From assembly GCF_056746865.1 (NCBI RefSeq), contig NZ_CM163382.1: a stretch of DNA of 64,000 nt; one strand, given 5' to 3'. The position numbers were made by a program, and so were the translations under genes. The notes under the pieces are model-generated. The model was given only the letters and a program-made list of their open reading frames with translations. It was not told the origin of the DNA and searched no databases. Shown piece by piece: positions 2,260 to 61,650 of this stretch; the stretch's first letter is position 1; every line of letters starts with the position of its first letter.

Positions 2260-3209
<950 letters not shown>

Positions 3210-3235
<26 letters not shown>

Positions 3236-3938
3236 GATGCCAGCGCAGCAAGTTTGCCATCGCAAAGAGATATTTTTCGCTGGCTTCGTCGGAGGAGATG
3301 GGTGGAAACTCTGCGGTGATGCAATGCAGGTTGAGATCCGCACACCAACTGCCGAAAGAGCCAGGCGTTTCATAACCGACGCTGGTTACCAGAGGCAATT
3401 CAAACGCCTGGGCCAGCCATTCACCTAATTCGCTGTGTCTGGGATCTTCAATACAGGCCAGCGGATCGTGGAATGAGACCACCCAGGCGGGTTGAATGCG
3501 GTGTATAAGCTGGCACAGCGCCTGGGTTTCAGGTTCAGAGCCAGGTTTGTCACCTGTCAGCAATACGACATCACGTTCTTCAGCGGCGCTGTTCCAGCGA
3601 TAAACGGTTTCACCTTCCTTCCAATTCGCCGCCGGAAAGTTTCTGTTTAAATCCACACCATTAGCATTGGCCCGTAACCCCAACTGGCAGCCGTCAGGAT
3701 TCACACACAGCACCACATGATGACGGCGCAAAGAAGGTGTCAACGTCCGCAGAGCACAGGAGAGCGTGACGACCGAAGAGTTTTCATCACCGTGAGTGCC
3801 AGCCAGAATCAAACCACTTTCGCGGCTGGCTGCAGGGGCAGGAAACCAGATTAACGGCGCGCCCAATAATGAACGTCCGTAATGTTCTGTTCCGGGCGGA
3901 AATGCGCCGCGTTCGGCGCGTGGGCGGGTTACGGTCAT
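3210..3938 (-). CDS. mpaA: Murein tripeptide amidase A (zinc carboxypeptidase-like), 242 aa
   Basis: ORF 3210..3998; start set to internal Met (MTVTRPRAERGAF...) giving 242 aa; 3' end overlaps ycjG 3' end on opposite strand. Confidence 0.88.
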
Positions 3939-4033: not shown

Positions 4034-4064
4034 TCACTTTTTTGCCGGAAGTTGTTTGCATTTT
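4034..4064. promoter_or_regulatory. Conserved ~30-bp motif upstream of mpaA (near-identical copy upstream of mppA)
   Basis: tcacttttttgccggaagttgtttgcatttt here versus tcacttttttgatggaagttgtttgcatttc at 7145..7175; 28/31 identical. Confidence 0.45.
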
Positions 4065-4228
4065 CATTGATGTGCAGATATTAGAATTGTCGTAATGTTA
4101 TATACATGGCGTATTTTATTCTTACTGGTTCTACACATGTTAATCGCATCTGATTGATCAGTTCACCTTAATAAGTTTAATAAATCGTACTGCACATAGT
4201 ACAGTACGAAGGTAGCTATATAATTGAT

Positions 4229-4867
4229 TTACATGAAGAATGGCTTATCGCCATCAGTCCCGGGCTGATTGATGCCTATATTCTCACCAATGTGTTTCTC
4301 AGGTTTATCGATGATATCTGTAATTAATGCTGCGACACTCTTACGTGATACGATCGTACCTTTGAATGGTTCATTGCGTGAGGTAAGCTCATAATCAATA
4401 ATATCTTCATCGGTCAGCCAGGCAGGGCGAAGAATTGTATATTCCAGTCCAGAAGCCTCAATTGCATCCGCAGCCCTGCGGAATGGTTTTAGGGGCTCAC
4501 CAATAACTGCATTATTCCATTCGCCAAATTTTCCTGGAACTTCATCATAAATACCGAGGGAAAGAACAAAGATCAGACGTTTAACATCACAGGCTTTCAT
4601 CGCAGCGATCACTGAATTTGCCTGAATATCTAAATCTTCCCCCGTAAGGTTGGCATACACAACATCCTGTCCCTGCATGGCCTGCTTCAGTGCCGCATGA
4701 TTCAGTACATCCCCCATAATAATCTTGCTATTAGTTGGATAGGGTTTGTGGATTTTTGCTGGCTGACGGGCAAATAAAGTTTGTTTAATGGTTTGTTTAT
4801 CTGCCAGTTGATTAATCACATGGCGGGCTATCTGACCGCCAGCACCAAGAATCAGTACATTTTTCAT
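4229..4867 (-). CDS. ymjC: NAD(P)-binding NmrA/SDR-like oxidoreductase, 212 aa, uninterrupted
   Basis: N-terminal Rossmann motif ILGAGGQIARHV; position between mpaA and ycjY; symbol assigned by synteny and is less certain than the product class. Confidence 0.7.
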   Translation of the reverse strand: MKNVLILGAGGQIARHVINQLADKQTIKQTLFARQPAKIHKPYPTNSKIIMGDVLNHAALKQAMQGQDVVYANLTGEDLDIQANSVIAAMKACDVKRLIFVLSLGIYDEVPGKFGEWNNAVIGEPLKPFRRAADAIEASGLEYTILRPAWLTDEDIIDYELTSRNEPFKGTIVSRKSVAALITDIIDKPEKHIGENIGINQPGTDGDKPFFM

Positions 4868-4937
4868 GAAACTTTTCCCAGATTATTGGCAGCAATATGC
4901 CAGGCCATATCACTATTACGGATTTGAATATGTTTCA

Positions 4938-5858
4938 TTACAGAGTTTCCTCAAAGAACGGCGCTAATACTGAAATTGCTTCAGCCACATAGACTTTGCC
5001 GTCATAAAGATCCATATGGTTTGCGCCTTCAACAATGTGATAGCGTTTATCCTGGCTTGATGCTCGATCGTACAGGTCGTCACTCATCCATTTGCTCCCT
5101 GCCTGGCTGCCCGCCACAATCTGTATCGGCTGAGTCAGGTACACTTCCGCCATATGGTAAGCATCATAGGTAATAATCTGGTTAAGGCTGCGCAAAGTAG
5201 TGTAACCCGGTGCTGTTGGATACTGCGCGCGAGGGGTGTGGTAATACTCCCAGGCCTGACGCAGTTCTTCGTTCGGCGCATCGGACTCCTTCATTGGTGC
5301 CAGTGGCATGGTGGCGTATTCTCCGCTGCTAATATCGCTGGTTCGGGCGTTTGAACCCGCGTCAACGTATGGTAGGGCATCAATAGATTTCACATTGTTT
5401 TCCCAACCATTACGGAACATCGAACCAATATTGACCGCACTAACAGTACCGATGGCCTTGATGCGGCGATCCTGAATTGCAGCATTGGCTGTATATCCTG
5501 CACCGGCACAAATTCCCATCGCACCAATTCGGCTATTGTCGACATAAGAAAGCGTTGTCAGATAATCAATCACGGCACTGACGTCTTCAGTACGAATGTA
5601 TGGGTTTTCTAACTGACGCGGCTCGCCGCCGCTTTCACCTTGATAAGATGCGTCATAAGCAATAGTGACAAATCCCTTTTCCGCCAGTTTTTCGGCATAG
5701 GTTCCAGCCGTTTGCTCTTTAACGCCCCCACCTGGGTGAGATACCACAATTGCCGGATACTGACGGGTTTCATCAAATTTTGGAGGGAAATAGATCACTG
5801 CAGACAAAGAGATGGTTGGATTATTGCTGTTAGTGAAGCTGACTTTATTATTCATCAT
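4938..5858 (-). CDS. ycjY: Alpha/beta hydrolase (dienelactone hydrolase-like), 306 aa
   Basis: ORF 4938..5870; start set to internal Met for 306 aa; GxSxG-like segment GAMGICAGAGY. Confidence 0.8.
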   Translation of the reverse strand: MMNNKVSFTNSNNPTISLSAVIYFPPKFDETRQYPAIVVSHPGGGVKEQTAGTYAEKLAEKGFVTIAYDASYQGESGGEPRQLENPYIRTEDVSAVIDYLTTLSYVDNSRIGAMGICAGAGYTANAAIQDRRIKAIGTVSAVNIGSMFRNGWENNVKSIDALPYVDAGSNARTSDISSGEYATMPLAPMKESDAPNEELRQAWEYYHTPRAQYPTAPGYTTLRSLNQIITYDAYHMAEVYLTQPIQIVAGSQAGSKWMSDDLYDRASSQDKRYHIVEGANHMDLYDGKVYVAEAISVLAPFFEETL

Positions 5859-5928
5859 TCCGTTCCTCATGGAGTTGTCGGTTCGTTTTAACGGTTGGTG
5901 ATATCACTATAGATATTGATCATTAAGT

Positions 5929-5971
5929 TGATTAGACCCAAAATCATGATTAGACCTATCATTTAAATGAT
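5929..5971. promoter_or_regulatory. Putative LysR-type operator in the ycjY-pgrR divergent region
   Basis: direct repeat tgattagacc x2 (5929..5938, 5947..5956) followed by perfect palindrome atcatttaaatgat (5958..5971), 25 bp upstream of the pgrR ATG. Confidence 0.4.
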
Positions 5972-5995
5972 TAATAGATTGTATGGAGATACTGA

Positions 5996-6895
5996 ATGAA
6001 GCGTGAAGAAATCGCTGATCTGATGGCGTTTGTCGTCGTTGCAGAGGAGCGTAGCTTCACTCGCGCAGCAGCCCGCCTGAGCATGGCGCAGTCAGCTTTA
6101 AGCCAGATAGTGCGCCGTATAGAAGAACGATTGGGATTGCGGCTTCTGACACGAACCACGCGCAGCGTTGTACCCACTGAAGCGGGCGAGCATCTTTTGT
6201 CTGTTCTTGGCCCTATGTTGCATGACATAGATTCTGCCCTGACATCCCTGAGCGATCTGCAGAACCGCCCATCCGGGACAATACGTATTACTACTGTAGA
6301 ACATGCAGCAAAAACGATATTGTTACCAGCTATGCGCACATTCCTGAAATCGCATCCTGAAATTGATATCCAGCTTACCATTGATTATGGTTTGACCGAT
6401 GTCGTTTCTGAACGTTTTGATGCAGGCGTCCGTCTGGGTGGGGAGATGGATAAAGATATGATCGCCATTCGAATCGGGCCAGATATACCAATGGCTATTG
6501 TTGGCTCACCGGATTATTTTTCTCGTCGAAGTGCTCCAACGTCAGTGTCACAATTAATAGATCATCAGGCAATTAATTTGTATCTTCCCACATCGGGTAC
6601 AGCAAATCGCTGGAGATTAATACGCGGTGGACGTGAAGTTCGTGTTCGCATGGAAGGTCAGCTTTTACTGAATACGATAGACCTGATCATTGATGCTGCA
6701 ATTGATGGGCATGGATTGGCGTATCTACCTTATGATCAGGTTGAGCGGGCTATTAAAGAAAAAAAACTGATACGTGTTTTGGATAAATTCACACCAGATT
6801 TACCCGGTTATCACCTGTACTATCCACACCGTCGACATGCTGGCTCGGCATTCTCATTATTTATAGATAGGCTGAAGTATAAAGGTGCTGTTTAG
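5996..6895 (+). CDS. pgrR: LysR-family transcriptional regulator PgrR (YcjZ), 299 aa
   Basis: N-terminal HTH MKREEIADLMAFVVVAEERSFTRAAARLSMAQSALSQ; LysR substrate-binding domain; synteny. Confidence 0.85.
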   Translation: MKREEIADLMAFVVVAEERSFTRAAARLSMAQSALSQIVRRIEERLGLRLLTRTTRSVVPTEAGEHLLSVLGPMLHDIDSALTSLSDLQNRPSGTIRITTVEHAAKTILLPAMRTFLKSHPEIDIQLTIDYGLTDVVSERFDAGVRLGGEMDKDMIAIRIGPDIPMAIVGSPDYFSRRSAPTSVSQLIDHQAINLYLPTSGTANRWRLIRGGREVRVRMEGQLLLNTIDLIIDAAIDGHGLAYLPYDQVERAIKEKKLIRVLDKFTPDLPGYHLYYPHRRHAGSAFSLFIDRLKYKGAV

Positions 6896-7144
6896 CACTA
6901 CTTGCTGATACATTAATTTAATTCTTCTCTTAACGTATTCTCAGTTCCTTTCAACGTTTTGGTCATTTTTTATTCTTCGTACAATGGCGACAGATGCTGA
7001 TTATGATACCGAAAACGGGTTTGAACGTGCGAAGCCCGAACGTAGTGTTCGGAGTTCTATGTGCTTTACCGCATTTTGGAGACTATTATTTACACTAAAT
7101 CTGATTTGATATATTGATACTTAAAACATTTGATGCTTCCTTTG

Positions 7145-7175
7145 TCACTTTTTTGATGGAAGTTGTTTGCATTTC
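7145..7175. promoter_or_regulatory. Conserved ~30-bp motif upstream of mppA (copy of the mpaA-upstream motif)
   Basis: 28/31 identity to 4034..4064; lies 57-87 bp upstream of the mppA start. Confidence 0.45.
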
Positions 7176-7231
7176 TTTAAGGCGAAACAAATAATTACGC
7201 ATCAATTTTAATGTCGGTTAGAGGGAAACTT

Positions 7232-8845
7232 ATGAAGCACTCTGTTTCAGTCACGTGTTGTGCGCTGTTGGTCAGCAGCATTTCTCTTTCGTATGCTGCA
7301 GAAGTTCCGAGCGGCACAGTACTGGCAGAGAAGCAGGAGCTGGTGCGCCACATTAAAGATGAGCCTGCGTCGCTGGATCCCGCTAAAGCCGTGGGCCTGC
7401 CAGAGATTCAGGTCATTCGCGATCTGTTTGAAGGACTGGTGAATCAGAACGAGAAAGGGGAGATTGTCCCCGGCGTTGCGACTCAGTGGAAAAGTAATGA
7501 CAACCGTATCTGGACTTTTACCCTGCGCGATAACGCAAAATGGGCGGATGGCACACTGGTAACGGCGCAAGATTTTGTCTACAGCTGGCAACGTCTGGTG
7601 GACCCTAAAACGCTATCGCCATTTGCATGGTTTGCCGCGCTGGCGGGAATCAACAACGCACAGGCGATTATTGATGGTAAAGCTACGCCTGACCAGCTTG
7701 GCGTCACCGCAGTTGATGCCCATACTTTGAAAATCCAGCTTGATAAACCGTTGCCGTGGTTTGTGAATTTAACCGCTAACTTTGCCTTCTTCCCGGTGCA
7801 AAAAGCCAACGTAGAAAGCAGTAAAGAGTGGACGAAACCCGGAAAACTGATCGGTAATGGCGCTTATGTTCTTAAAGAGCGCGTAGTCAATGAAAAACTG
7901 GTCGTGGTACCGAATACCCATTATTGGGATAACGCCAAAACGGTGCTGCAAAAAGTGACTTTCCTGCCAATTAATCAGGAATCCGCAGCCACTAAGCGTT
8001 ACCTCGCGGGGGATATTGATATCACCGAATCCTTCCCGAAAAATATGTATCAGAAGCTGTTGAAGGATATTCCGGGGCAGGTTTATACGCCGCCGCAGCT
8101 CGGGACCTATTATTATGCGTTTAACACGCAAAAAGGGCCGACGGCAGATCAGCGCGTTCGCCTGGCATTAAGTATGACGATAGATCGCCGCCTGATGACC
8201 GAAAAAGTGTTGGGGACGGGCGAAAAGCCAGCGTGGCATTTTACACCAGATGTTACCGCGGGATTTACGCCGGAACCTTCGCCGTTTGAACAAATGAGTC
8301 AGGAAGAACTGAATGCGCAGGCAAAAACTTTGTTGAGCGCCGCTGGTTATGGTCCGCAAAAACCGCTGAAGCTGACGCTTTTGTATAACACTTCAGAAAA
8401 CCATCAAAAAATTGCGATTGCTGTAGCATCAATGTGGAAAAAGAACCTTGGCGTAGATGTTAAATTGCAAAATCAGGAATGGAAAACCTATATCGATAGC
8501 CGTAACACCGGCAATTTTGATGTTATCCGAGCCTCGTGGGTAGGGGATTATAATGAACCCTCCACTTTCCTGACATTATTAACGTCAACGCATTCAGGAA
8601 ATATTTCACGCTTTAACAATCCGGCATACGACAAAGTACTGGCCCAGGCATCAACGGAAAATACCGTTAAAGCGCGTAATGCCGATTACAACGCGGCAGA
8701 AAAAATCCTCATGGAGCAAGCACCGATTGCACCAATTTATCAATATACCAATGGACGATTAATCAAGCCGTGGCTGAGAGGTTATCCCATTAATAACCCG
8801 GAAGATGTGGCGTACAGTCGGACTATGTATATTGTGAAGCATTGA
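7232..8845 (+). CDS. mppA: Periplasmic murein tripeptide-binding protein (OppA paralogue), 537 aa
   Basis: ORF 7211..8845; start set to internal Met for 537 aa; signal peptide MKHSVSVTCCALLVSSISLSYA; family 5 substrate-binding protein. Confidence 0.88.
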   Translation: MKHSVSVTCCALLVSSISLSYAAEVPSGTVLAEKQELVRHIKDEPASLDPAKAVGLPEIQVIRDLFEGLVNQNEKGEIVPGVATQWKSNDNRIWTFTLRDNAKWADGTLVTAQDFVYSWQRLVDPKTLSPFAWFAALAGINNAQAIIDGKATPDQLGVTAVDAHTLKIQLDKPLPWFVNLTANFAFFPVQKANVESSKEWTKPGKLIGNGAYVLKERVVNEKLVVVPNTHYWDNAKTVLQKVTFLPINQESAATKRYLAGDIDITESFPKNMYQKLLKDIPGQVYTPPQLGTYYYAFNTQKGPTADQRVRLALSMTIDRRLMTEKVLGTGEKPAWHFTPDVTAGFTPEPSPFEQMSQEELNAQAKTLLSAAGYGPQKPLKLTLLYNTSENHQKIAIAVASMWKKNLGVDVKLQNQEWKTYIDSRNTGNFDVIRASWVGDYNEPSTFLTLLTSTHSGNISRFNNPAYDKVLAQASTENTVKARNADYNAAEKILMEQAPIAPIYQYTNGRLIKPWLRGYPINNPEDVAYSRTMYIVKH

Positions 8846-8895
8846 TGTGATGGGAATTGGCGTTACCCTTGTGGATAACGCCAGTGATGTCTGAT

Positions 8896-9927
8896 TTAGC
8901 GACCCTGGTCCGGCGGTGTAATGTTATCCATATACAGCGTCTGGCTGGGGAAGGCAAAGTCCGCGCCGTGTGACTGTACAATATCGATAATCTTCAAATA
9001 AACGTCTTGCTGTGCAGCAAGCCATTCAGCCCATACCGTGGTTTTGGTAAAGCAATAAACCATAATATTCAATGAGGAGTCAGCAAACTGGTTGAAATAA
9101 ACCAGTAAGGTTTGTCGCTGGTCAATGGCCGGGTGATTTTTCAGCATCTCACGTACGGCTTCGACAATAACGCCCACTTTTGCCGCATCCTCATAACGTA
9201 AACCAATGGTCGTGGTAATGCGCCGGTTGGTCATTCGTCCTGGGTTTTCTACGCTGATTGACGAAAACAGCGAGTTCGGTACGTACAACGGACGATTATC
9301 AAAAGTCGTAATCTTGGTAATTCGCCAGCCAATTTCCGATACTGTACCTTCGATATTTCTGTCCGGTGAACGGATCCAGTCGCCAATACTAAAAGGACGG
9401 TCGAAATAGAGCATAATCCCGGAAAAGAAGTTACTCAGAATATCTTTACCGGCCATACCGACAGCCAGACCACCAATACCACCAAAGGTCAACAAGCCAG
9501 AAAGGCTCATGCCGAAATGTTCGCCATAAAGCAGAACAAGCACCACAATAATGGTGATTTTGATGATACGCGACATAATCCGCGCACTGGTGATATCGCG
9601 ACCTTTTTTAATCTGCTGTTTTTCAAACTGATTAATCAGCAGAAATAGCTTAATCGTCAGAATAACCGCAATCAGGGACGTACAGATAAAATCGATAACG
9701 CCTGGGGTGATAAATTTGAGTTTATAGTTTTCTATAACATAATTAATGATGCTACCAACAGCACTGATAATTATGGTGTAGATTAAAAATTGCACCGCAT
9801 GGAATAAAAAACCTTTTCTTTTACGATTTCCGCGGCGAAACCAAAAGCTCATCAGAATCAATGCTGCGCAGCTACCGAAAATAATGACCAGATTAAGCGC
9901 ATTATTTGTAAACAGTTCAGCGATCAT
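8896..9927 (-). CDS. ynaI: MscS-family mechanosensitive channel, 343 aa
   Basis: multi-TM N-terminus and MscS-like beta domain; synteny. Confidence 0.85.
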
Positions 9928-10170
9928 TGTTTTATCAGGCTCCTCCAGATAATTGTCGTCATGCCGGAAACCCCTGGCGGGGCTATTTTACCGCGACAAT
10001 TCATTGAGATCATCAATAGTCAGGGAAGGAAGTAGCAACATTAGCTAACTAATCAATGCGTTGATTGTAAATCCAGCTAAGAGGTGAGGTTTTCAGAGCA
10101 GACAACGGTGAAATGTCATGGTATTGTTACGTTTAGGTAACAAGAAATTTGTCTGCACAAGGATTACATC

Positions 10171-10428
10171 ATGATTATGGCGAAACTGAAGTCAGCGAAA
10201 GGGAAGAAATTTCTCTTTGGTTTGTTGGCGGTTTTCATTATTGCGGCGTCGGTTGTGACTCGCGCGACCATCGGCGGCGTGATAGAACAGTACAATATTC
10301 CGCTGTCTGAGTGGACGACATCAATGTATGTGATTCAGTCATCAATGATTTTTGTTTATAGCCTGGTCTTTACTGTGTTGCTGGCAATCCCGTTGGGAAT
10401 TTATTTCCTTGGCGGCGAAGAGCAGTAA
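10171..10428 (+). CDS. ynaJ: Small inner-membrane protein (DUF2534), 85 aa
   Basis: two predicted TM helices; position between ynaI and uspE. Confidence 0.75.
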   Translation: MIMAKLKSAKGKKFLFGLLAVFIIAASVVTRATIGGVIEQYNIPLSEWTTSMYVIQSSMIFVYSLVFTVLLAIPLGIYFLGGEEQ

Positions 10429-10437
10429 GTAAAAAAT

Positions 10438-10457
10438 AGGCCCGATAACTCGGGCCT
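10438..10457. terminator. Hairpin between convergent ynaJ and uspE
   Basis: aggcccg-ataact-cgggcct inverted repeat. Confidence 0.5.
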
Positions 10458-10477
10458 TGTCAGTTATTGAAGAGTCG

Positions 10478-11428
10478 TTAATCGTCTTCTTCGTCATCCA
10501 GTTCAACGGGTGTCTGATACTGGTCAGGTTTAATGACCAGCAGGTCGCAGCGAAGATGATCAATCACCTGTTCTGCCGTGTTGCCGAGGAATGCTGCTGA
10601 AATACCGGTGCGTCCTACCGTGCCCAGAACCACAATCCCCGCCTGTAAGTGCTCCGCCAAATCAGGAATCACCTCTTCTGGCAGACCTTTTTCTACGTGC
10701 GTCATGTTTTCATTAATGCCGAATTTCTGCCGCAGGGCTTTCATTGCCAGCAAATGTTGCCCACGAATGGCATCGTTATAAACGCTCGGATCAAATTCCG
10801 GCAGTTCAATCGCGATATTAATTGGCGTTACGGGATAAGCGCCAACCAGATGAACTTCGGTATGGTTGACTTGTTCCGCCAGTTCGATCGTCTCTTTGAC
10901 CAGTTTTTCATTGAGCGCATTATGGTACGGCTCTTCACTGGCGAGATTCACCGCCACCAGCGCCTTACCCCCTTCCGGCCACGGCTGGTCTTTCACCATC
11001 CACACCGGGCTTGGGCATTTGCGTAACAGATGCCAGTCCGTTGGCGTAAAAATCACCGCTTCCAGACGGTCATGTTGGTGCGCCATTTTTAGCACCAAAT
11101 CGTGCCCGCCGCTGATCACTTCCTGAATGATGGCTTCGAAAGGACGGTTATGCCAGACCACTTTAATTTCAATGGGAACGCCAGCATTGAGATAATATTT
11201 TGCCTGCTCGTGGATCCAGTCTGTACGCTGGCTGATGACGCCCTGACGCATAGCGGTACGTTCGTCCGGAGAGAGCAGGGTGGTCATTTCGTATGAGAAG
11301 TCATAGATCGGCAAAAAGGCTTTAATTTTGCCACCAATCCGTTGATGTAAATAAACAGCTCGCCGCAATGCTGGTTGGTCGTCCTGGTTAGGATCGATAA
11401 CAACGAGCATGTTCTGATACATAGCCAT
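10478..11428 (-). CDS. uspE: Universal stress protein E (tandem Usp domains), 316 aa
   Basis: ORF 10478..11455; start set to internal Met ([15 protein letters not shown]...) for 316 aa. Confidence 0.9.
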
Positions 11429-11579
11429 ACAGGGTCTCCTTACAACAACTGTCAACGCAGTTTGTAATTAAAAGATTAACCCATATCTGGTGAATGAAAC
11501 AGTGATGAACCTTCTGCCAGATCAATAAATCAGAAAAATTTAATGATATGACAGAAGGATAGTGAGTTATGCGGAAAAA

Positions 11580-12332
11580 TCAGGCAACGTTACGCGTATG
11601 ACCAGCAAGCTGGGCCAGCGCATCGTTATTTTCGATGGTGATGTATTTACCTTTGACTGCCAGCATACCGCTTTTCTGGAAGCGACCCAGCAGACGGCTG
11701 ATGGTTTCTACCGTCAGGCCCAGATAGTTACCGATATCGCCACGAGTCATCGTCAGGCGGAATTCACGAGGGGAGAAGCCGCGTTGGGCAAAACGACGGG
11801 ACAGGTTGTAGATGAATGCAGCCAGACGTTCCTCGGCATTTTTCTTCGACAACAGCAGGATCATGTCCTGATCGCCTTTGATTTCACCGCTCATCAGACG
11901 CATCATCTGCTGACGCAGATTCGGCATTTTACCAGACAAATCGTCCAGCGTTTCGAACGGGATTTCACATACCATCGAGGTTTCCAGCGCCTGCGCGAAG
12001 CTCGGGTGATGACCGCTGCCGATAGCGTCAAATCCCACCAGATCGCCCGCTAAATGGAAACCAGTGATTTGCTCGTCGCCTTGCTCAGTGATGGTATAAC
12101 TTTTAATCGTACCGGAGCGGATGGCATAAAGCGATTTAAGTTCATCTCCAGCCTTAAACAGCGTCTGGCCTTTCTGAATAGGCTTCTTCCGCTCAATGAT
12201 ATTATCAAGCTGATCAAGCTCATGTTCGTTGAGTGTGAACGGGATGCAAAGCTGGCTGATGCTGCAATCCTGGCAATGGATAGCACAACCGCCAGACTGA
12301 ATGCGCCGTATAATTCGCTTTTCCGGGATCAT
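11580..12332 (-). CDS. fnr: Anaerobic global regulator FNR (CRP/FNR family, [4Fe-4S]), 250 aa
   Basis: ORF 11580..12389; start set to internal Met ([29 protein letters not shown]...) for 250 aa; N-terminal Cys cluster and C-terminal HTH. Confidence 0.95.
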
Positions 12333-12526
12333 AGGTCTGCTCAAGCCGTAATTGATATTTGTCAATTTTAACATCTTTTTAGAGAGCAAGTAAGTCTAAG
12401 CAAACCTTAACAGCAGAGAATTCCGATATTAGATGTAAATATATGTCTATCTATTTGAAAACCCTTAAGTTGTTAAGGGTAACTTTACATAAAAGTGTGA
12501 ACAAGCTGGCACAAATTGTTTAATGT

Positions 12527-13042
12527 TTACAGCAAAAGATAACCTTCGTGGCGTAATAACCACTCTTTTCGCTGAACTCCGCCTGCATATCCGGTCATGG
12601 TACCGTTTCTGCCAATGACCCGATGACAAGGCACAACAATGCTGATGGGATTCGATCCGTTTGCCGCACCAACGGCACGCGCCGCACCAGGGCGGCCCAA
12701 TTGTTCAGCCAGTTGGCCGTAATGCATTACCTGCCCGCAGGGGATTGTGCGTAATGTTTTCCAGACTTCGCGCTGAAATGGCGTCCCCCCCGTGGCAGTG
12801 GGAAGCGTATCAATAATGCTAAGATTACCGGCAAAATATTCACGAAGCTTGTCGCTTAAACCACCTGGGTTGGTGGCAGAAATGCGTTCATAGCCTTCTT
12901 TGCGGTAATGGATGTCCAGCAGCTGCACCATGCGTTCGCTGTACTCTTCCCATTCAACCGCCCGCAGGCGAAATTGCTCATCGCAAATCACCCACAGTGG
13001 ACCCAGTGGCGTGACAATTTTTTCTTCAAGTAATCTCAGCAT
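12527..13042 (-). CDS. ogt: O6-methylguanine-DNA methyltransferase, 171 aa
   Basis: active-site motif PCHRVIG present; synteny downstream of fnr. Confidence 0.92.
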
Positions 13043-18455: not shown

Positions 18456-18784
18456 AACTGCATAAAAAAATAGAGTCTGTCGACATCCGCCAGACTCTAC
18501 AGTACACACAGCAGTGCATCCGCGTCTTAAATCCGGCATGGTCTCCTCTGCGCCGGTGACTGTGTTATAACGGTTTTAACCTTTAGTTGCCAATTTTCTT
18601 CAGTGACAGATTTCACGAAAATATAAGTTACATTATTAATATCGTGAATGAATAATCATGCATAAGCATTTTGCTTAAAATATCGGCAATATTTGGAACT
18701 TATTACTGGAAATTTGGGTAATACGTTGTTGGACCGACCCGGTCTGGTTATCATATCGCGCTCTTAATTGCGGGAGGATGTAAC

Positions 18785-21934: not shown

Positions 21935-22056
21935 GCAGGTGAATGCAACGTCAAGCGATGGGCGTTGCGCTCCATATTGTCTTACTTCCTTTTTTGAATT
22001 ACTGCATAGCACAATTGATTCGTACGACGCCGACTTTGATGAGTCGGCTTTTTTTT
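21935..22056 (+). ncRNA. fnrS: FnrS small regulatory RNA
   Basis: sequence gcaggtgaatgcaacgtcaagcgatgggcg...cgccgactttgatgagtcggcttttttttt matches FnrS as I recall it, with an intrinsic terminator at the 3' end. Confidence 0.88.
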
Positions 22057-23819: not shown

Positions 23820-24755
23820 TTATTTCACTTCAACCACATTCAGTCGTAACTCATCCAACTGATTTTCATCTTCTTCAGGCTGCCAACCCGCCGGTTGTAG
23901 AGGGATCTCTTCGCGATCAAACGCCAGATCACCCCCGTTAACCACTTCAGAACCGTGGGTAATGCCTTTGAAATCGAACAGGTTGGTATCGCACAGATGC
24001 GACGGCACCACATTCTGCATCGCGCTGAACATCGTCTCGATACGCCCCGGATAACGTTTATCCCAGTCACGCAACATGTCAGCAATCACCTGACGTTGCA
24101 GGTTAGGCTGTGAACCGCACAGGTTGCACGGAATAATCGGGAACGCTTTTGCATCGGCAAAGCGCTGAATATCTTTCTCGCGGCAGTAGGCCAGAGGGCG
24201 AATCACGATATGTTTGCCATCATCGCTCATCAGTTTCGGAGGCATACCTTTCATCTTGCCGCCGTAGAACATATTTAAGAACAACGTTTGCAGGATATCG
24301 TCACGATGGTGACCCAGCGCGATCTTCGTCGCTCCCAGTTCCGTTGCGGTACGATAAAGGATACCGCGACGAAGACGAGAACACAGTGAGCAAGTGGTTT
24401 TGCCCTCCGGAATCTTCTCTTTCACGATACCGTAAGTGTTCTCTTCAACAATCTTGTACTCAACGCCCAGCTTTTCAAGATACTCGGGCAGAACGTGTTC
24501 CGGGAAGCCCGGTTGCTTTTGATCGAGGTTAACAGCCACCAGCGAAAAATTGATTGGCGCGCTTTGCTGCAAATTGCGCAGAATTTCCAGCATGGTATAG
24601 CTGTCTTTACCCCCGGAGAGGCAAACCATGATGCGATCGCCTTCTTCAATCATATTGAAGTCAGCAATGGCTTCGCCCACGTTACGACGCAGACGTTTTT
24701 GTAATTTGTTCAGGTTGTATTGTTCTTTCTTACTAATTTCTTGATTTTGCGACAT
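23820..24755 (-). CDS. ttcA: tRNA 2-thiocytidine(32) synthetase TtcA, 311 aa
   Basis: PP-loop SGGKDS and CxxC motifs; synteny. Confidence 0.92.
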
Positions 24756-24930: not shown

Positions 24931-25446
<516 letters not shown>

Positions 25447-26639: not shown

Positions 26640-26867
26640 TGAATAAATCCTTTAGTTATTTTATTTGCCTTTTCATCCCCATTTTGGGGAGTGAAAACAT
26701 CCTAAAGGAGAAGTTCCGTTAGCCGATAAATATCATTTGTTACGCCTTAAGTAAAACCTTAATCAAATAATTCTACGGAAATGATGATAAGTTTGGTGAA
26801 TATATTATTGGCGACATATACAAAATAAAAATTATACATTTAAATAGTGATGCGTTATTCTTCGCGG

Positions 26868-26972
26868 GTTATATGCCTTTATTGTCACAAAGATTATTTT
26901 CTGTTGGACCCTTGTTACTGTTTATCCAACAAATAATGAGACAAGCCCGAACAGTCGTCCGGGCTTTTTTTT
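26868..26972 (+). ncRNA. micC: MicC small RNA (ompC-targeting, Hfq-dependent)
   Basis: 5' end gttatatgcctttattgtcaca and 3' terminator aagcccgaacagtcgtccgggctttttttt; divergent from ompN as expected. Confidence 0.8.
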
Positions 26973-27000
26973 AGAATTGGATAATCCTTATCCAGTGCAT

Positions 27001-35617: not shown

Positions 35618-35944
35618 ATGATGAAGAAAACATTACTTCTTTGTGCGTTTCTTGTTGGGCTGGTAAGCAGCAATGTAATGGCATTGACTCTGGATGAAGC
35701 CAGAACTCAGGGGCGGGTAGGTGAAACATTTTATGGTTATCTGGTTGCGCTGAAAACAGATGCTGAAACGCTGGAATTAGTAAAAGATATTAATGAAGCT
35801 CGTAATCTGAGTTACCAACAATTGGCAAAGCAAAATAATGTATCCACTGATGAGATAGCAAAATTGGCAGGGCAAAAAATGGTTGCTCGCGCGAAGCCGG
35901 GAGAATATGTGCAGGGGATTAATGGAAAATGGCTGCAAAAATAA
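35618..35944 (+). CDS. ydbL: Periplasmic protein YdbL (DUF1318), 108 aa
   Basis: ORF 35540..35944; start set to internal Met (MMKKTLLLCAFLVGLVSSNVMA signal peptide) for 108 aa. Confidence 0.8.
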   Translation: MMKKTLLLCAFLVGLVSSNVMALTLDEARTQGRVGETFYGYLVALKTDAETLELVKDINEARNLSYQQLAKQNNVSTDEIAKLAGQKMVARAKPGEYVQGINGKWLQK

Positions 35945-36369
35945 TTTCATATCCATATCCATATTCATTATGTTGCGCCATTTTGTGAATATTTAAGGGA
36001 AAATAAGTTCTGGACTAAGGCGATTTTTATTTGCATCTATTGAATTGTTATAAGTCCGATATAGGGGAGTGTCTATTTTATTTTTGATGGTTTTTTATGT
36101 GTAATTATAATTGTAAGAAATGTTATATTATTTAGTATTTACTGGGTGTATTGTTTTTTAATGCCTTAACCTCTTATTAAATATCATTTAAGTTGAATTG
36201 ACTTCAACGGATAGTATAAATTATTAGAACATCACATATTTTTGATTGGTTCTTTATTTATATTTCTTTCGTGAATATAAACACCAATCATGGTCTTGCG
36301 TTCCGTCAAAAAGGCCCGCTTTTATTTTTGTCGACTGGCGTGCAACGCTCTATTTCTAAGGAAATATAA

Positions 36370-39300
36370 ATGCAAAGGAAAAAATTGTTGTCTGTGTGTG
36401 TGGCGATGGCATTGAGCGGTCAGACATGGGCAACTGATACATCGATCCTGGATATAACTGATGACACCCGGAAATCCAGCAAGATCACATGTCCGGCGAA
36501 TATTCATTCTATTAGCAAAGAGCAGTTAGCTAAATTACCATCAGAATGTCGGGATTCTGATGACAGCGCCGTAATGAGCTGGACTGCAGCTGGCCTGGTT
36601 GCAGTCGTTACAGGAGCCGCGGTGATGGCGCTTAATGATGGTGATCATCATGACAGTTCAGAACCAGATGACGGTGGTGATACACCTGTTCCACCAGATG
36701 ACGGTGGTGATACACCTGTTCCACCAGATGACGGTGGTGATACACCTGTTCCTCCAGATGACGGTGGCGATACACCAGTTCCACCAGACGATGGTGGCGA
36801 TACACCAGTTCCACCAGACGACGGTGGTGATACACCTGTTCCTCCAGATGACGGTGGCGACGTCACTCCACCAAAAGAGCCCAAAATCTTCAATAACAGT
36901 GTCACATTCGACGAAGACAAAGGCACGCTGCAAATTCGCAATGCCACCTTTACCTACAGCAAAAACAGTGATGGAAGTTACACCCTGACGGCTGAAGATG
37001 GCCGAACCTCTATTGTGCAGGGCTGGGATGTCGACACCGATGCCAATACGGTAGAAATTACCGGCGTGAATAACCTTGGCGGTATGACGTGGTGTTACGG
37101 TAAAGACGGCATTATCTATATCACCAAAACCGTCGGCGCAACGGTGGATGACCCCGCGAACAGCAACGTATTTAACCTCAGCGATGCGGTGCTCACCGAC
37201 CAGGGCGGTAATGCCGCGCTGAATGGCGCGACGGTGATTGAAATAAACGGCAGCAGGATCGCCCTTAATAACGACGGTGATATTTCTGCTACGGGAAAAG
37301 ATTCTGTGGTTGTGGCGATAACCGGAAACGATATTACCGTTAACAATAACGGCCATATGGTTGTCGATGGCGGCACAGCGGGCGTGGTTAACGGCGATCG
37401 TGCAATCCTGAATAACCGCGGTGATGCAGTGATCACTAACGGCGGCACGGGTGTCATTGTGACGGGTGACAACGCGGTTATCAACAACATGGGGCAAAGC
37501 GATATTGATGGCGACAACTCGGTATCGGTAAAAGTTGCAGGAAACGCAACCAGAATCAGAATGGAAGGCGGGATCAATGTCAGCGGTGGCGCGCATGGCA
37601 TTGATGCCACCGGTGATAATAACGAAGTCAGCAACAAGGGCAACATTTCGGTGGTGGATGCGCATTCCACGGGCGTGCTGCTGAACGGCGATCGCGCGTC
37701 ATTCATTAATATGGGTGATATTAACGTTAGCGGAGGTGCAGCGGACGATCACTCTAATGGTGTGCAGATCAACGGCGATAACAGTACCTTTATCAACGTT
37801 GGAGATTTAAATGCCGACGACAGGGCGACCGGGGTGAAAATTAACGGTGACGCCAGCGACATTGCCCTGGCCGGGGCGATGCATGTCGGGGATTTTTCCA
37901 CCGGGCTGGAGGTGATGGGTAAAAACAATGATCTGTCGTTGTCCACCAATATGATGGATGTCACCGGGAAACAGTCCACCGGGGTGACCATTACAGGTGA
38001 TGATAATACCATTGATATCACCGGTGATATGGTCGTTGATCAAAACTCTGTCGGGGCGAAAATTGTCGGCGATCGCGTTTCGTTGCAACAGAAAGGTGAT
38101 ATTACCGTTAACGGTGCGGGGCACGGCGTTGAAGTCAGCGGTAGTAAGACGACAATCAATAATCAGGGCAAACTGACCGTAAAAGATCAAGACTCAATCG
38201 GTATCGTTATCACCGGAGATGACGCGCAATTTACTACCGTGGGTGAGATTGATGTCTCGCTGAACGGTACGGGTGTTGCGATCAGCGGCGATCGTGAACA
38301 AGTGAATTTGAGCGGTGATATAAATGTCATTCAGGAGCGTGACGGCAGCGGTACTTTCCAGGGCGGAACGGGCATCAGCATAATGAGCAACGACAGCAGT
38401 ATGCTGTTGACGGGAAACATTAATGTGACGTCCAGTATGGGGGACCAACCGTCCACCTCACCCCAGTCGTTAACCGGCGTTACCATCGAGGGGGAAAACA
38501 ATACTGTCGATCTGGAAGGCGACATCAATATTACTGTCGATTCGGATTACCTGGGGGATGAAAACAGTCTTTACGGCGTGGTTGTTTTGGGTACAAACAA
38601 CACCATCAATCTCGATGGTGGTATCAATATCTCTGGTGATAGTGGTGGACATACTATCAAAGGTGTGCAGGTAACAGGAAATAATACCGTCAATATAAGT
38701 GGTCATTCCGTAATGAATACCCGACAGATATTGGGATCCTTCTCTCTGATTTCGGTGGCTGATGGCGGGAATGTCATATTTGATGAAAACGCGATAACCG
38801 AGATTCAGAGTTCAGTGAGAGATAGTGACTATCTTTTTTTCGATGCATCGTTAATTGTTGCTACGGGAAACCAGTCTGTTATTCAGAACAACGGCATTAT
38901 TAATACAACCGATGCTCAAGAATTAATGATGGCGAATTCGGGGGCGCAAGTTGTCAATGCCGGGGTGATTAATATCAGGCCAGATGCTGAATCACACACT
39001 TTCTTTGCTGGAATGATGGCAAGAAGCGATGACTCGCAGGCAAAAAATGCCTCCGGAGGAACAATCAATCTGACATCCATTACCCGGCCTTTTAGCAGCG
39101 GAGGATTTAACGAGCGCCCGATCAAATGGTATCACAACACGGGTTATGCCTTGTTGGCCAGTAATTACGGATCGGTAATCAATGAAACAGGAGCAACCAT
39201 TAATTTGCATGGTGCAGGAACCTATGGTGTTTCCGCTTCAAAAGGAACGGCGACCAATGCGGGCGAGATAAATGTCGACGGCTTTGTTCCAATAGTAGAT

Positions 39301-42189
39301 GAAAACGGTAATATTATTGATGAAACTTACTGGCAGACCAATTCCGTATATCTGATGGGGGGCGGGATGTTGGCAGGTTCAACGGATACCGGCGACGGTG
39401 ATGCTAAAGCGGTGAATACCGGTATCATCAACGTTAAGAATGAAGGCTTCGGCATGCTGGCGATGAACGGTGGGACCGTTGTAAACCAAGGGACAATCAA
39501 TCTCACCGCCGATGAGGGCGTGACGAAGCAGCAAGATAACCAACTGTTCGCGATGGGAGCCATTCAGGGTGGTCTGGCGATTAATGACCAGGATGGGGTT
39601 ATTAATATTAACACTGATATTGGCCAGGCGTTTTATAAAGATGGCACCGGCACCATTCTCAACTATGGAAAAATTAATCTTTTCGGTAATCCAATGGATG
39701 AAAGTGATTCCCACATTGGCGTTACGCCGGATGACAAAGATATTCTCAGTGAGCTGTCTGGCAGCGGCGAGAGCATCAGTAAAACTACAACTAGCGACGG
39801 TTTTATCGCAGTTAATAACCTGGCAAACTATGGCGACGAAACGCTTAACGGCGACGTTATAGCAAATGGCTGGATATTCAACCAACCTGATGCCAGCCTA
39901 ACAATCAACGGCGAACTGAGCGTAAACCAGGGGTTGGAAAACAGTGGTCACCTGGATGTTGACAGCATTAACAGCAAAACCACGATATATAACCGTGAAA
40001 CAGGGAGCATAACAACCGATCTGCTGACGTTGAATGGCGCGGTTTCCTTCTTTAATGAAGGCGAATTTAATGGTTCAATTACCGGAGACAGCTACCAACA
40101 GAATGTGGTGAATACCGATGAAATGACGGTGACCGAAGATGGCCACTCACTCGTCAACGGAAGTTTCCTGTTCTTCAATGAGGCTGGCGCGACCCTGACA
40201 AATAGCGGTAATGCGGTAACGGGCGGGGAAAACGCGATTATTCATGTAACCAGAACCAGTGATTCTGTTTCGCAGGTTAACCGTGGCACCATCACGGCCA
40301 CAAATGGCTATAGCGCAATCAAAACTGAAAATACTGGCTCGAACAGTAACGGGAAATGGATTTGGAATACGGAAACAGGAGTGATAAATGGTATTAATCC
40401 TGCTGCACCGTTGGTTGATTTAGGACGAGGTTATAACTTTGCTAACGCTGGCGTTATTAATGTTCAGGGCGATAATGCAGTGGGCATCAGTGGCGGCACA
40501 ACCAGCTATGTTGTCCAGTTGGTGAACAGTGGCATCATTAATGTGGGTACTGAGCAGGGGCAACTGGATGGAACCAACGGCGAAGGTTTAATTGGTATTA
40601 AGGGCAATGGTCGGGAAACGACAATTAATAACACGCAAACGGGTGTGATTAATGTCTATGCCGATAACTCCTGGGCGTTTGGTGGGCAAACGAAAGCCAT
40701 CATTAACAACGGTGAAATTAATCTGCTGTGTGACACCGGATGCGATATTTATGCTCCAGGAACGACGGGGGCGCAAAACGATCACAACGGTACTGCGGAT
40801 ATTACCGTACCAGAGGCATCAACCACGCCGCCACAAGGTAATGTTCCAACGCCACCTGTCGATTCAAATGCACCGCAACTGCTGAGCAACTATACCATTG
40901 GTACCAACAGCGACGGGAGTTCGGGTACGCTCAGCGCGAATAACCTGGTTATTGGCGACAACGTGAGTGTTAACGCCGGGTTTAGTGCAGGAACTGCGGA
41001 CACCACCGTTGTCGTTAACGATGTATTCAAAGGCGAAAACATCAGCGGTGTGGATAACATCGTTTCCTCTACTGTTGTCTGGAACGCTAAAGGCAGCACC
41101 GATGCCAGCGGCAACGTTGACGTCACTATGAGCAAAAACGCTTATACCGATGTGGCGACCGATGCTTCGGTGAATGACGTCGCGAAAGCACTGGATGCGG
41201 GTTACACCAACAACGAGCTGTATACCAGCCTGAACGTCGGCACGACTGCCGAACTGAACAGTGCCCTGAAACAGGTCAGCGGTAGCCAGGCGACCACGGT
41301 ATTCCGCGAAGCGCGCGTGCTAAGCAACCGCTTTAGCATGCTGGCGGATGCCGCACCGAAAGTGGGTAACGGTCTGGCGTTCAACGTTGTTGCGAAAGGC
41401 GATCCGCGCGCGGAGCTGGGGAACAATACCGAGTACGACATGCTGGCATTGCGTAAAACCATCGACCTGAGCGAAAGCCAGACGATGAGTCTGGAGTACG
41501 GTATCGCGCGCCTCGATGGCGACGGTGCGCAGAAAGCGGGTGATAATGGCGTTACAGGCGGTTATAGCCAGTTCTTTGGCCTGAAACATCAGATGTCCTT
41601 CGACAACGGCATGAACTGGAATAACGCATTGCGTTATGACGTTCACAACCTTGACAGCAGCCGTTCGATTGCATTTAGCAACACAAACAAAACGGCTGAT
41701 ACCGACGTGAAGCAGCAGTACCTGGAGTTCCGCAGCGAAGGGGCGAAGACTTTCGAACCGAGCGAAGGACTGAAGGTTACGCCATATGCGGGTGTTAAAC
41801 TGCGTCACACACTGGAAGGTGGCTATCAAGAGCGCAATGCCGGAGACTTTAACCTGAATATGAACAGTGGCAGCGAAACGGCGGTGGACAGCATCGTCGG
41901 GTTGAAACTGGATTACGCAGGTAAAGACGGCTGGAGCGCTAGCGCTACGCTGGAAGGCGGGCCGAACCTGAGCTACGCGAAGAGCCAGCGTACGGCAAGC
42001 CTGGCAGGCGCAGGCAGTCAGCACTTTAATGTCGATGACGGTCAGAAGGGCGGCGGCATCAACAGCCTGGCAAGCGTCGGCGTGAAGTACAGCAGCAAAG
42101 AAAGTTCGCTGAATCTGGATGCTTACCACTGGAAAGAGGACGGCATCAGCGATAAAGGCGTGATGCTGAACTTCAAGAAAACGTTCTAA
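36370..42189 (+). CDS. ydbA: Large autotransporter (type Va) adhesin-like protein, 1939 aa, uninterrupted
   Basis: signal peptide, six full DDGGDTPVPP decapeptide repeats, long Gly/Asn/Thr-rich beta-helix-like passenger, C-terminal approx 280-aa beta-barrel ending ...VMLNFKKTF. Confidence 0.85.
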   Translation: MQRKKLLSVCVAMALSGQTWATDTSILDITDDTRKSSKITCPANIHSISKEQLAKLPSECRDSDDSAVMSWTAAGLVAVVTGAAVMALNDGDHHDSSEPDDGGDTPVPPDDGGDTPVPPDDGGDTPVPPDDGGDTPVPPDDGGDTPVPPDDGGDTPVPPDDGGDVTPPKEPKIFNNSVTFDEDKGTLQIRNATFTYSKNSDGSYTLTAEDGRTSIVQGWDVDTDANTVEITGVNNLGGMTWCYGKDGIIYITKTVGATVDDPANSNVFNLSDAVLTDQGGNAALNGATVIEINGSRIALNNDGDISATGKDSVVVAITGNDITVNNNGHMVVDGGTAGVVNGDRAILNNRGDAVITNGGTGVIVTGDNAVINNMGQSDIDGDNSVSVKVAGNATRIRMEGGINVSGGAHGIDATGDNNEVSNKGNISVVDAHSTGVLLNGDRASFINMGDINVSGGAADDHSNGVQINGDNSTFINVGDLNADDRATGVKINGDASDIALAGAMHVGDFSTGLEVMGKNNDLSLSTNMMDVTGKQSTGVTITGDDNTIDITGDMVVDQNSVGAKIVGDRVSLQQKGDITVNGAGHGVEVSGSKTTINNQGKLTVKDQDSIGIVITGDDAQFTTVGEIDVSLNGTGVAISGDREQVNLSGDINVIQERDGSGTFQGGTGISIMSNDSSMLLTGNINVTSSMGDQPSTSPQSLTGVTIEGENNTVDLEGDINITVDSDYLGDENSLYGVVVLGTNNTINLDGGINISGDSGGHTIKGVQVTGNNTVNISGHSVMNTRQILGSFSLISVADGGNVIFDENAITEIQSSVRDSDYLFFDASLIVATGNQSVIQNNGIINTTDAQELMMANSGAQVVNAGVINIRPDAESHTFFAGMMARSDDSQAKNASGGTINLTSITRPFSSGGFNERPIKWYHNTGYALLASNYGSVINETGATINLHGAGTYGVSASKGTATNAGEINVDGFVPIVDENGNIIDETYWQTNSVYLMGGGMLAGSTDTGDGDAKAVNTGIINVKNEGFGMLAMNGGTVVNQGTINLTADEGVTKQQDNQLFAMGAIQGGLAINDQDGVININTDIGQAFYKDGTGTILNYGKINLFGNPMDESDSHIGVTPDDKDILSELSGSGESISKTTTSDGFIAVNNLANYGDETLNGDVIANGWIFNQPDASLTINGELSVNQGLENSGHLDVDSINSKTTIYNRETGSITTDLLTLNGAVSFFNEGEFNGSITGDSYQQNVVNTDEMTVTEDGHSLVNGSFLFFNEAGATLTNSGNAVTGGENAIIHVTRTSDSVSQVNRGTITATNGYSAIKTENTGSNSNGKWIWNTETGVINGINPAAPLVDLGRGYNFANAGVINVQGDNAVGISGGTTSYVVQLVNSGIINVGTEQGQLDGTNGEGLIGIKGNGRETTINNTQTGVINVYADNSWAFGGQTKAIINNGEINLLCDTGCDIYAPGTTGAQNDHNGTADITVPEASTTPPQGNVPTPPVDSNAPQLLSNYTIGTNSDGSSGTLSANNLVIGDNVSVNAGFSAGTADTTVVVNDVFKGENISGVDNIVSSTVVWNAKGSTDASGNVDVTMSKNAYTDVATDASVNDVAKALDAGYTNNELYTSLNVGTTAELNSALKQVSGSQATTVFREARVLSNRFSMLADAAPKVGNGLAFNVVAKGDPRAELGNNTEYDMLALRKTIDLSESQTMSLEYGIARLDGDGAQKAGDNGVTGGYSQFFGLKHQMSFDNGMNWNNALRYDVHNLDSSRSIAFSNTNKTADTDVKQQYLEFRSEGAKTFEPSEGLKVTPYAGVKLRHTLEGGYQERNAGDFNLNMNSGSETAVDSIVGLKLDYAGKDGWSASATLEGGPNLSYAKSQRTASLAGAGSQHFNVDDGQKGGGINSLASVGVKYSSKESSLNLDAYHWKEDGISDKGVMLNFKKTF
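36667..36870 (+). repeat. In-frame 30-bp tandem repeat array inside ydbA (six full units plus a degenerate seventh)
   Basis: gatgacggtggtgatacacctgttccacca repeated with synonymous variation; encodes DDGGDTPVPP. Confidence 0.9.
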
Positions 42190-55243: not shown

Positions 55244-55543
55244 TTACAAATCTGCTTGATGAGGACGATATACTGGATACCAAATATTACTGCAACAAAG
55301 AACTTCACTGTTTTTGTCAGAAATAAAAATCGTAATTTCCATATCATCCCAACCTTTAACATCTCTGACTACCATCCATAATGGAATATCAAGGCCGTAT
55401 GATTTCATACCATCAGGAAGAAATTTAATAGCAGTGATTTTGTATGCCAGCGAGCCATTAAGATTATACTTTTTACAATATTTTTCTGCTATCGAATTCA
55501 CTTTGTTTTCAGTAAGAATAGGAGCGATTATTTTATTATTCAT
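55244..55543 (-). CDS. Hypothetical small protein (99 aa), AT-rich, translationally coupled to the upstream SUKH-like gene
   Basis: start ATG overlaps upstream stop (ATGA); GGAG 4 nt upstream; translation MNNKIIAPILTENKVNSIAEKYCKKYNLNGSLAYKITAIKFLPDGMKSYGLDIP...; no family recognised. Confidence 0.5.
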   Translation of the reverse strand: MNNKIIAPILTENKVNSIAEKYCKKYNLNGSLAYKITAIKFLPDGMKSYGLDIPLWMVVRDVKGWDDMEITIFISDKNSEVLCCSNIWYPVYRPHQADL

Positions 55544-56034
55544 GAGACTCCACATTGCTGTAAATAAAGAATAATTTCAACTTGCATTTCCACTAACTCA
55601 CCAAAATTTTCAAAGCATAACTCACAAGGGAAATCACCGACATCATCGGAAAATATACCAAAATCATGAATGAGAATATAAATTTTTAGGCTGTTGCGGT
55701 CAAGAAAAGCTACACTCCCATCGCCAAAACTGCCAACAGGAAAAGGATCAATGTTGTTCAATAATGGATATTCTTTTTTATAATCTTCCCATTGTTGCAA
55801 AAATAGAGGGTAATATCTGTCCAGATCCTTCAAAGTATAAATTTGAGGATCGACAAAATGACATGCGCCAAAATGAGACAATAACTGCCGATAGTCTTTT
55901 GGAATATGTGTTGCGTATTTATCCTCAAATAAAAGAAGGTTATCTTCAGTTTCCGGAGCGGTTACGCAACCTGTAAGTCCTGTTGTTTTTACGGCAGGCC
56001 AGGCGGTTTCTAAAATTTGAAACATTTTTTCCAT
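55540..56034 (-). CDS. SUKH/Smi1-Knr4-like putative immunity protein (164 aa)
   Basis: motifs resembling SUKH-1: ...HIPKDYRQLLSHFGACHF... and ...PFPVGSFGDGSVAFLDRNSLKIYILIHD...; AT-rich relative to flanks. Confidence 0.55.
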   Translation of the reverse strand: MEKMFQILETAWPAVKTTGLTGCVTAPETEDNLLLFEDKYATHIPKDYRQLLSHFGACHFVDPQIYTLKDLDRYYPLFLQQWEDYKKEYPLLNNIDPFPVGSFGDGSVAFLDRNSLKIYILIHDFGIFSDDVGDFPCELCFENFGELVEMQVEIILYLQQCGVS

Positions 56035-60622: not shown

Positions 60623-60866
60623 AGGATATTTAAAGAAAACGCCTGTACTAAAACCGACCCGTGGTACAGGCGAAGAATACGGGTCTACATCGGAAGCGCC
60701 TATTATATTTATTTGTATGACAAATAAAACCATAATCCTTATCCATACGTCCATCTGGCTTATTTTTAATCAATTCACCCGATCTTTGATCTCATCAACG
60801 GTATCAAAATAAACCAGCGTATAACGTTCAAATCGAACATAAGATTCGATAAACCATGGAGGTTAT

Positions 60867-61111: not shown

Positions 61112-61319
<208 letters not shown>

Positions 61320-61650
61320 TCGTTGGCCTCGGTTGATAGAAATATCGGTCGGGGCCTTCGTCTTTCTGATTCCCGGTTAGCCTGAAAACAGAAAGTCTCA
61401 GGCACCCGCAGGCATCCTATGAGTTTTCCTTAGGGACGAAAATAATCACTTCACGAAATTGCGTGCTGTTTTCCAGAATTTTTTGTCATTCGGTTTAGCC
61501 ATTCGTTACTCTCTTCATTCCAATAGCATTAATTTTCTCTGCAATAATTGTTGTAAAAATGTGACGCAAAGAGGTTTTTGGTCATAAGTAATTACCGTCA
61601 AGTGCCGATGACTTTCTATCAGGAGTAAACCTGGACGAGAGACAACGGTA

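Follow-up and report, generated by a model that had tools for sequence, protein, structure and literature searches.

The ynaI-ynaJ spacer of an Escherichia coli genome as the unoccupied counterpart of the K-12 IS5F site

Organization of the ynaI-ynaJ region

The window, i.e., the whole stretch of 64,000 nucleotides that was analyzed, contains the genes mppA (+), ynaI (-), ynaJ (+), uspE (-) and fnr (-), in the order found in E. coli. Since ynaI occupies 8896..9927 and ynaJ 10171..10428, the spacer between these two divergent genes is exactly 243 bp long (Table 1). The preliminary description presented it as an intergenic region of this length without a transposase frame, which is borne out by the list of open reading frames and by blastn and tblastn searches over the 64 kb. 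No open reading frame of at least 40 aa lies wholly within 9928..10170, and the sole frame that begins there, a 53-aa TTG frame from 10149, runs into ynaJ out of frame. A blastn search of the whole 64-kb window with the IS5F DNA of K-12 returned only chance matches of at most 26 nt, and a tblastn search of the same sequence with the InsH4 protein returned nothing significant. Neither an element of ~1.2 kb with an IS5-family DDE transposase nor terminal inverted repeats with a duplicated 4-bp target were found at the site, and remnants of IS5 ends or of their inverted repeats are absent from the spacer, which reads ATTAG-CTAA-CTAATC. The spacer appears to be a plain divergent promoter region that carries no mobile element.

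Table 1. Positions, in the window, of the ynaI-ynaJ spacer, its flanking genes and the insertion targets discussed in the text
Feature	Position	Strand	Description and basis
ynaI	8896..9927	-	343 aa, MscS-family low-conductance mechanosensitive channel; Pfam MS_channel domains; labeled ynaI in E. coli 118UI
ynaI-ynaJ divergent intergenic spacer	9928..10170	.	243 bp, uninterrupted; allele of the K-12 IS5F site without the element
GGAAGTAGC	10028..10036	.	9-bp target doubled by IS1A in WEM25 (beach water); empty in the window
TTAG-CTAA-CTAA	10041..10052	.	Three abutting YTAR tetramers, including the 8-bp palindrome TTAGCTAA; from the sequence and the list of YTAR sites
CTAA	10045..10048	.	IS5 target tetranucleotide, single in the window; from the K-12 junctions and the overlap of blastn blocks; doubled around IS5F (K-12) and ISKpn26 (Eco_23-3571)
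CAGAG	10094..10098	.	5-bp target doubled by an IS481-like element of ~1096 bp in JMF1 (wildebeest); empty in the window
ynaJ	10171..10428	+	85 aa, small membrane protein; Pfam DUF2534, E = 4.5e-41; annotated in 118UI

A sigma-70 promoter scan of 9800..10300 yielded no site at the threshold of the tool. By eye, a weak candidate promoter of ynaJ consists of CAGACA (10099..10104), a 17-nt spacer and TGgTATTGT ending at 10127, and a candidate TAAAAT is present on the ynaI strand at 9990..9985. A terminator-like hairpin on the plus strand (9962..9989) was discarded as within chance expectation, with 1 found vs 0.4 expected in a scan of 9800..10300. A perfect 6-bp inverted repeat, AATCAA-TGCG-TTGATT (10051..10066), abuts the IS5 target. 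The consensus of the FNR site is TTGAT-N4-ATCAA; in the repeat, the FNR half-sites stand in swapped order, so that in this form it does not constitute an FNR site. An Rfam scan of 9000..11000 by E-value detected no structured RNA, and a scan of the whole window with gathering scores gave no match near the spacer. Elsewhere, the gathering-score matches (18462..18557, 21935..22052, 26865..26980, 60633..60696 and 61256..61407) correspond to the known sRNAs McaS, FnrS, MicC and RydC and the Sok antitoxin of hokB, at K-12-like positions.

In other parts of the window, ttcA (23820..24755) is directly followed by uspF (24931..25365). In K-12, the same two genes are separated by the 23-kb Rac cryptic prophage (1411899..1434958), which is absent from the window; the Rac attachment site is therefore empty. 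At 35621..42189, the window passes from ydbL to an intact autotransporter gene of 5820 bp (36370..42189), repetitive at 36663..36860 with a period of ~30 bp; in K-12, feaR-feaB-tynA come after ydbL. The interval between hrpA and ydcF encodes, on the minus strand (55244..56034), a 99-aa hypothetical protein and a 164-aa protein of the SMI1/KNR4 family, and a short pseudogene fragment adjoins these two genes. Proteins of the SMI1/KNR4 family are often annotated as toxin-immunity proteins.

IS5F of K-12 and its target

The annotation of the MG1655 chromosome (NC_000913.3) places "insertion sequence:IS5F" at 1396044..1397238, with insH4 (b1331), between ynaI (b1330) and ynaJ (b1332). The preliminary description had placed an IS5 copy (insH) at this locus of K-12, and the RefSeq annotation proves it right. 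The converse, namely, that K-12 has no IS5 between ynaI and ynaJ, can be dismissed given the annotated IS5F and given that the K-12-lineage copy is also described in two publications (PMC11677980, Table 1; PMC2072959). IS5F is 1195 bp long and is bounded by the terminal inverted repeats GGAAGGTGCGAA(C/T)AAG, its ends being GGAAGGTGCGAACAAG and CTTATTCGCACCTTCC. The product is a protein of 326 aa with the Pfam domains DDE_Tnp_1 and DUF772. Against the NCBIfam model of the IS5 family (NF033581, cut-off 140 bits), this transposase scores 366 bits, and that of E. coli Eco_23-3571, discussed below, scores 366.8 bits.

The K-12 junctions read ...ATTAG-CTAA/GGAAGGTGCGAACAAG...IS5...CTTATTCGCACCTTCC/CTAA-CTAATCAATG or, with a longer left flank, ...CAACATTAG-CTAA/IS5/CTAA-CTAATCAATG..., the slashes marking the ends of the element. 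In the blastn alignment of the window with K-12, the blocks 5005..10048 and 10045..12806 abut IS5F and share exactly the tetranucleotide CTAA. The target duplication that the preliminary description proposed to locate by such an alignment is thereby identified, and the window holds it as a single copy through which the left and right flanks of K-12 are contiguous. The lengths agree with this, the K-12 spacer being 1442 bp (243 + 1195 + 4). The target is 117 bp from the start codon of ynaI and 122 bp from that of ynaJ (ATG in both cases).

The consensus of IS5 targets is YTAR, which the CTAA at this position fits; CTAA and CTAG are the IS5 target sites named in a study of IS5 transposition in BW25113 (PMC11677980). 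The cluster of YTAR tetramers that includes the target is located in a low-GC part of the spacer (32-41% GC in 41-bp windows). Thus, the window shares with the IS5F locus of K-12 the position, the target tetranucleotide and the flanks, which align through CTAA on both sides, but has neither the 1195-bp element nor the second CTAA, and differs by one substitution. This substitution, at 10006 (G in the window vs C), is the only difference within the spacer from the K-12 pre-insertion allele, which is the allele of strain RM14721 (see below). Over the flanks, the divergence of the window from K-12 is 1.3-1.5%, so that the window is not a recent K-12 derivative that lost IS5.

Distribution of the occupied and empty sites

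An exact 48-mer across the K-12 junction is present in 354 of the 5,426 complete E. coli genomes, in one copy each and always on the chromosome. In a sample of 60 genomes drawn evenly from these carriers, all 60 are laboratory derivatives of K-12, as judged by strain name, genome size and coordinates rather than by phylogeny; among them are MG1655, W3110, EMG2, DH1, DH5alpha, BW25113/Keio, MC4100, MC1061, C600, J53, JM109, XL1-Blue and EPI300. A 60-mer that spans the empty site occurs without interruption in ~5,011 of the 5,426 genomes (~92%); these represent diverse pathotypes and serotypes, with O157:H7, SE15, O104:H4 and a strain of avian pathogenic E. coli (APEC) among them. A 1.3-kb query of the locus is covered to at least 80% in 5,053 genomes. 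Some 60 of the 5,426 genomes fall in neither class as defined by the 60-mer and the K-12 junction, which is explained in part by the IS1A, IS481-like and ISKpn26 insertions described in the next section.

Outside E. coli, an exact 22-mer spanning the site, searched against one genome per bacterial species, matched at least one other species. In this outgroup, Escherichia sp. MOD1-EC7003, the site is empty and carries TTAGCTAACTAA, and the locus is 95-96% identical to the window; the outgroup evidence comes from this one Escherichia species. The MOD1-EC7003 contig does not have ~3.1 kb that correspond to 4064..7144 of the window (an SDR-family oxidoreductase gene, ycjY and pgrR), and the flanks tyrR..mpaA and mppA..ynaJ are collinear with the window at 95-96% identity.

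A 3-kb reconstruction of the empty K-12 allele, used as a search query, turned up three strains, RM14721, WEM25 and JMF1. RM14721, from dog faeces, has an empty 243-bp spacer and shows 0 mismatches in 1900 nt to the K-12 sequence from which IS5 and one CTAA have been removed; it is a natural genome that combines the flanking haplotype of K-12 with the absence of the element. The site is empty in the outgroup and in most lineages and is occupied by IS5F in one clade, which is delimited by strain names rather than by a tree.

Because the site is empty in diverse lineages, in a separate Escherichia species and in RM14721 with its K-12-identical flanks, the empty state would be ancestral and the K-12 IS5 derived. 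The preliminary description had called the locus "probably the ancestral empty site", a view to which the confinement of the carriers to K-12, the ~5,011 empty genomes, MOD1-EC7003 and RM14721 lend support. By these comparisons of sequences, the window almost certainly comes from an E. coli outside the K-12 lineage and retains an ancestral spacer that was never occupied, and IS5F would have been gained in the K-12 lineage. The ancestral state would then have been an uninterrupted 243-bp spacer with a single CTAA, kept by the window strain; in the K-12 lineage, an IS5 copy (IS5F, insH4) would have inserted in the CTAA equivalent to 10045..10048, and the insertion would have doubled these 4 bp. 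The exact junctions, the one CTAA vs two and the distribution among the genomes are observed directly, and the direction of change is inferred.

The opposite direction of change appears very improbable. It would require that this CTAA was occupied in an ancestor by IS5 or by a different member of the IS5 family, and that a precise excision restored a single target. Such an excision would indeed leave exactly one CTAA, as observed; the site does attract elements of the IS5 family, with two independent insertions at one tetranucleotide; and the second CTAA that adjoins the target (CTAACTAA, 10045..10052) superficially resembles a target duplication that was kept. However, the empty state prevails in ~92% of the genomes and extends to the outgroup species and to RM14721, and no IS5 sequence is present across the 64-kb window. 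Furthermore, the frequency of CTAACTAA is not below chance (2 copies in the window vs 0.85 expected) and the motif is also found in MOD1-EC7003, by which its interpretation as an excision footprint is ruled out. The ynaI/ynaJ copy of IS5 is one of eleven in BW25113, and it has been reported that IS5 transposes mainly by a copy/paste route, such that occupied sites stay occupied (PMC11677980); a clean loss from an occupied site is accordingly unlikely.

An artefact of assembly, with a real IS copy collapsed out of the source sequence, is an explanation to which we give next to no credence. Insertion sequences are multi-copy repeats at which short-read assemblies often break or collapse, but the normal outcome is a contig break rather than a seamless join with a single copy of the target, and the identical seamless 60-mer occurs in the 5,011 complete genomes. 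Moreover, the complete genome of E. coli 118UI, a urinary isolate from Mexico City, matches the entire window collinearly at 1597904..1661903 of NZ_CP032515.1; 4 of the 64,000 positions are mismatched (99.99% identity). The reading that we favor is still that of a gain in the K-12 lineage at a site that the window strain never had occupied. The difference between the strains is ordinary and already on record: the window has the allele without the IS5 insertion that is specific to K-12.

Other insertions in the spacer and effects on neighboring genes

Across the genome collection, four independent insertions were found in the spacer, IS5F, ISKpn26, an IS1A and an IS481-like element, all within the central 70 bp. 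In Eco_23-3571, isolated from an African green monkey in St Kitts, a 1196-bp ISKpn26 (2525..3720 of the locus L006 extracted from NZ_CM176496.1) occupies the CTAA equivalent to 10045..10048, with CTAA on both sides. This single additional genome came to light with a query for the junction that IS5 would form in the opposite orientation. The ISKpn26 copy uses the same target as IS5F of K-12 and generates the same 4-bp duplication, but it is 91% identical to IS5 and inserted in the opposite orientation, whereas the window is empty. Eco_23-3571 is not a K-12 derivative, its flanks being 99.2-99.3% identical to those of K-12. The flanks of WEM25, JMF1 and RM14721 are 100% identical to K-12. The JMF1 transposase scores 223.5 bits against the model of the IS481 family, for which the cut-off is 224. 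Outside the spacer, RM14721 carries an IS1X2 between ynaJ and uspE, at the equivalent of 10448..10456 of the window.

The repeated insertions may reflect a true target preference, or insertions may simply be tolerated between the two divergent promoters. It is conceivable, although we rather doubt it, that the segment 10028..10098, and above all TTAG-CTAA-CTAA, is a preferred landing site for insertion sequences and that insertions at this place, including IS5F, measurably rewire the expression of ynaI or ynaJ. That IS5, ISKpn26, IS1A and an IS481-like element have all used this spacer is new, though of modest weight.

Located between two divergent promoters, IS5F of K-12 is in the type of position from which IS5 can alter the expression of its neighbors. 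Insertions of IS5 upstream of bglGFB, flhDC, glpFK and fucAO change promoter activity. Assays of IS5 insertions upstream of these same four operons were employed in the BW25113 study (PMC11677980), in which a mutant of BW25113 deleted for the ynaI/ynaJ copy of IS5 was also constructed. Effects of this type are irrelevant to the window, which does not have the element. A literature search for promoter data on ynaI or ynaJ, or for an effect of IS5F on the expression of either gene, found nothing relevant.

A consequence of a different kind is documented for the genes directly to the right of the spacer. In a W3110 stock, high-frequency recombination of the b1331 IS5 with another copy adjacent to ogt deletes ynaJ-uspE-fnr, and similar fnr deletions have been reported for MG1655 stocks (PMC2072959). 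The effects of IS5 on fnr are the topic for which Sawers (2005, J Bacteriol 187:2609) is cited in PMC2072959 and PMC3149613. This deletion involves the copy on the ynaI side, b1331, and needs the ogt-side IS5 as well. The window has neither copy, and with no IS5 in the 64 kb, this route to the loss of ynaJ-uspE-fnr is closed to the window strain.

The finding matters little beyond bookkeeping: IS5F would be an acquisition of the K-12 lineage, and the window strain would have the natural ynaI-ynaJ promoter region. When the regulation of ynaI or ynaJ is studied in K-12, both genes have the same 1.2-kb element ~120 bp upstream, an arrangement that differs from the wild type. If insertions in this spacer do rewire the expression of the neighboring genes, K-12 would not be a typical reference where the regulation of ynaI and ynaJ is concerned.
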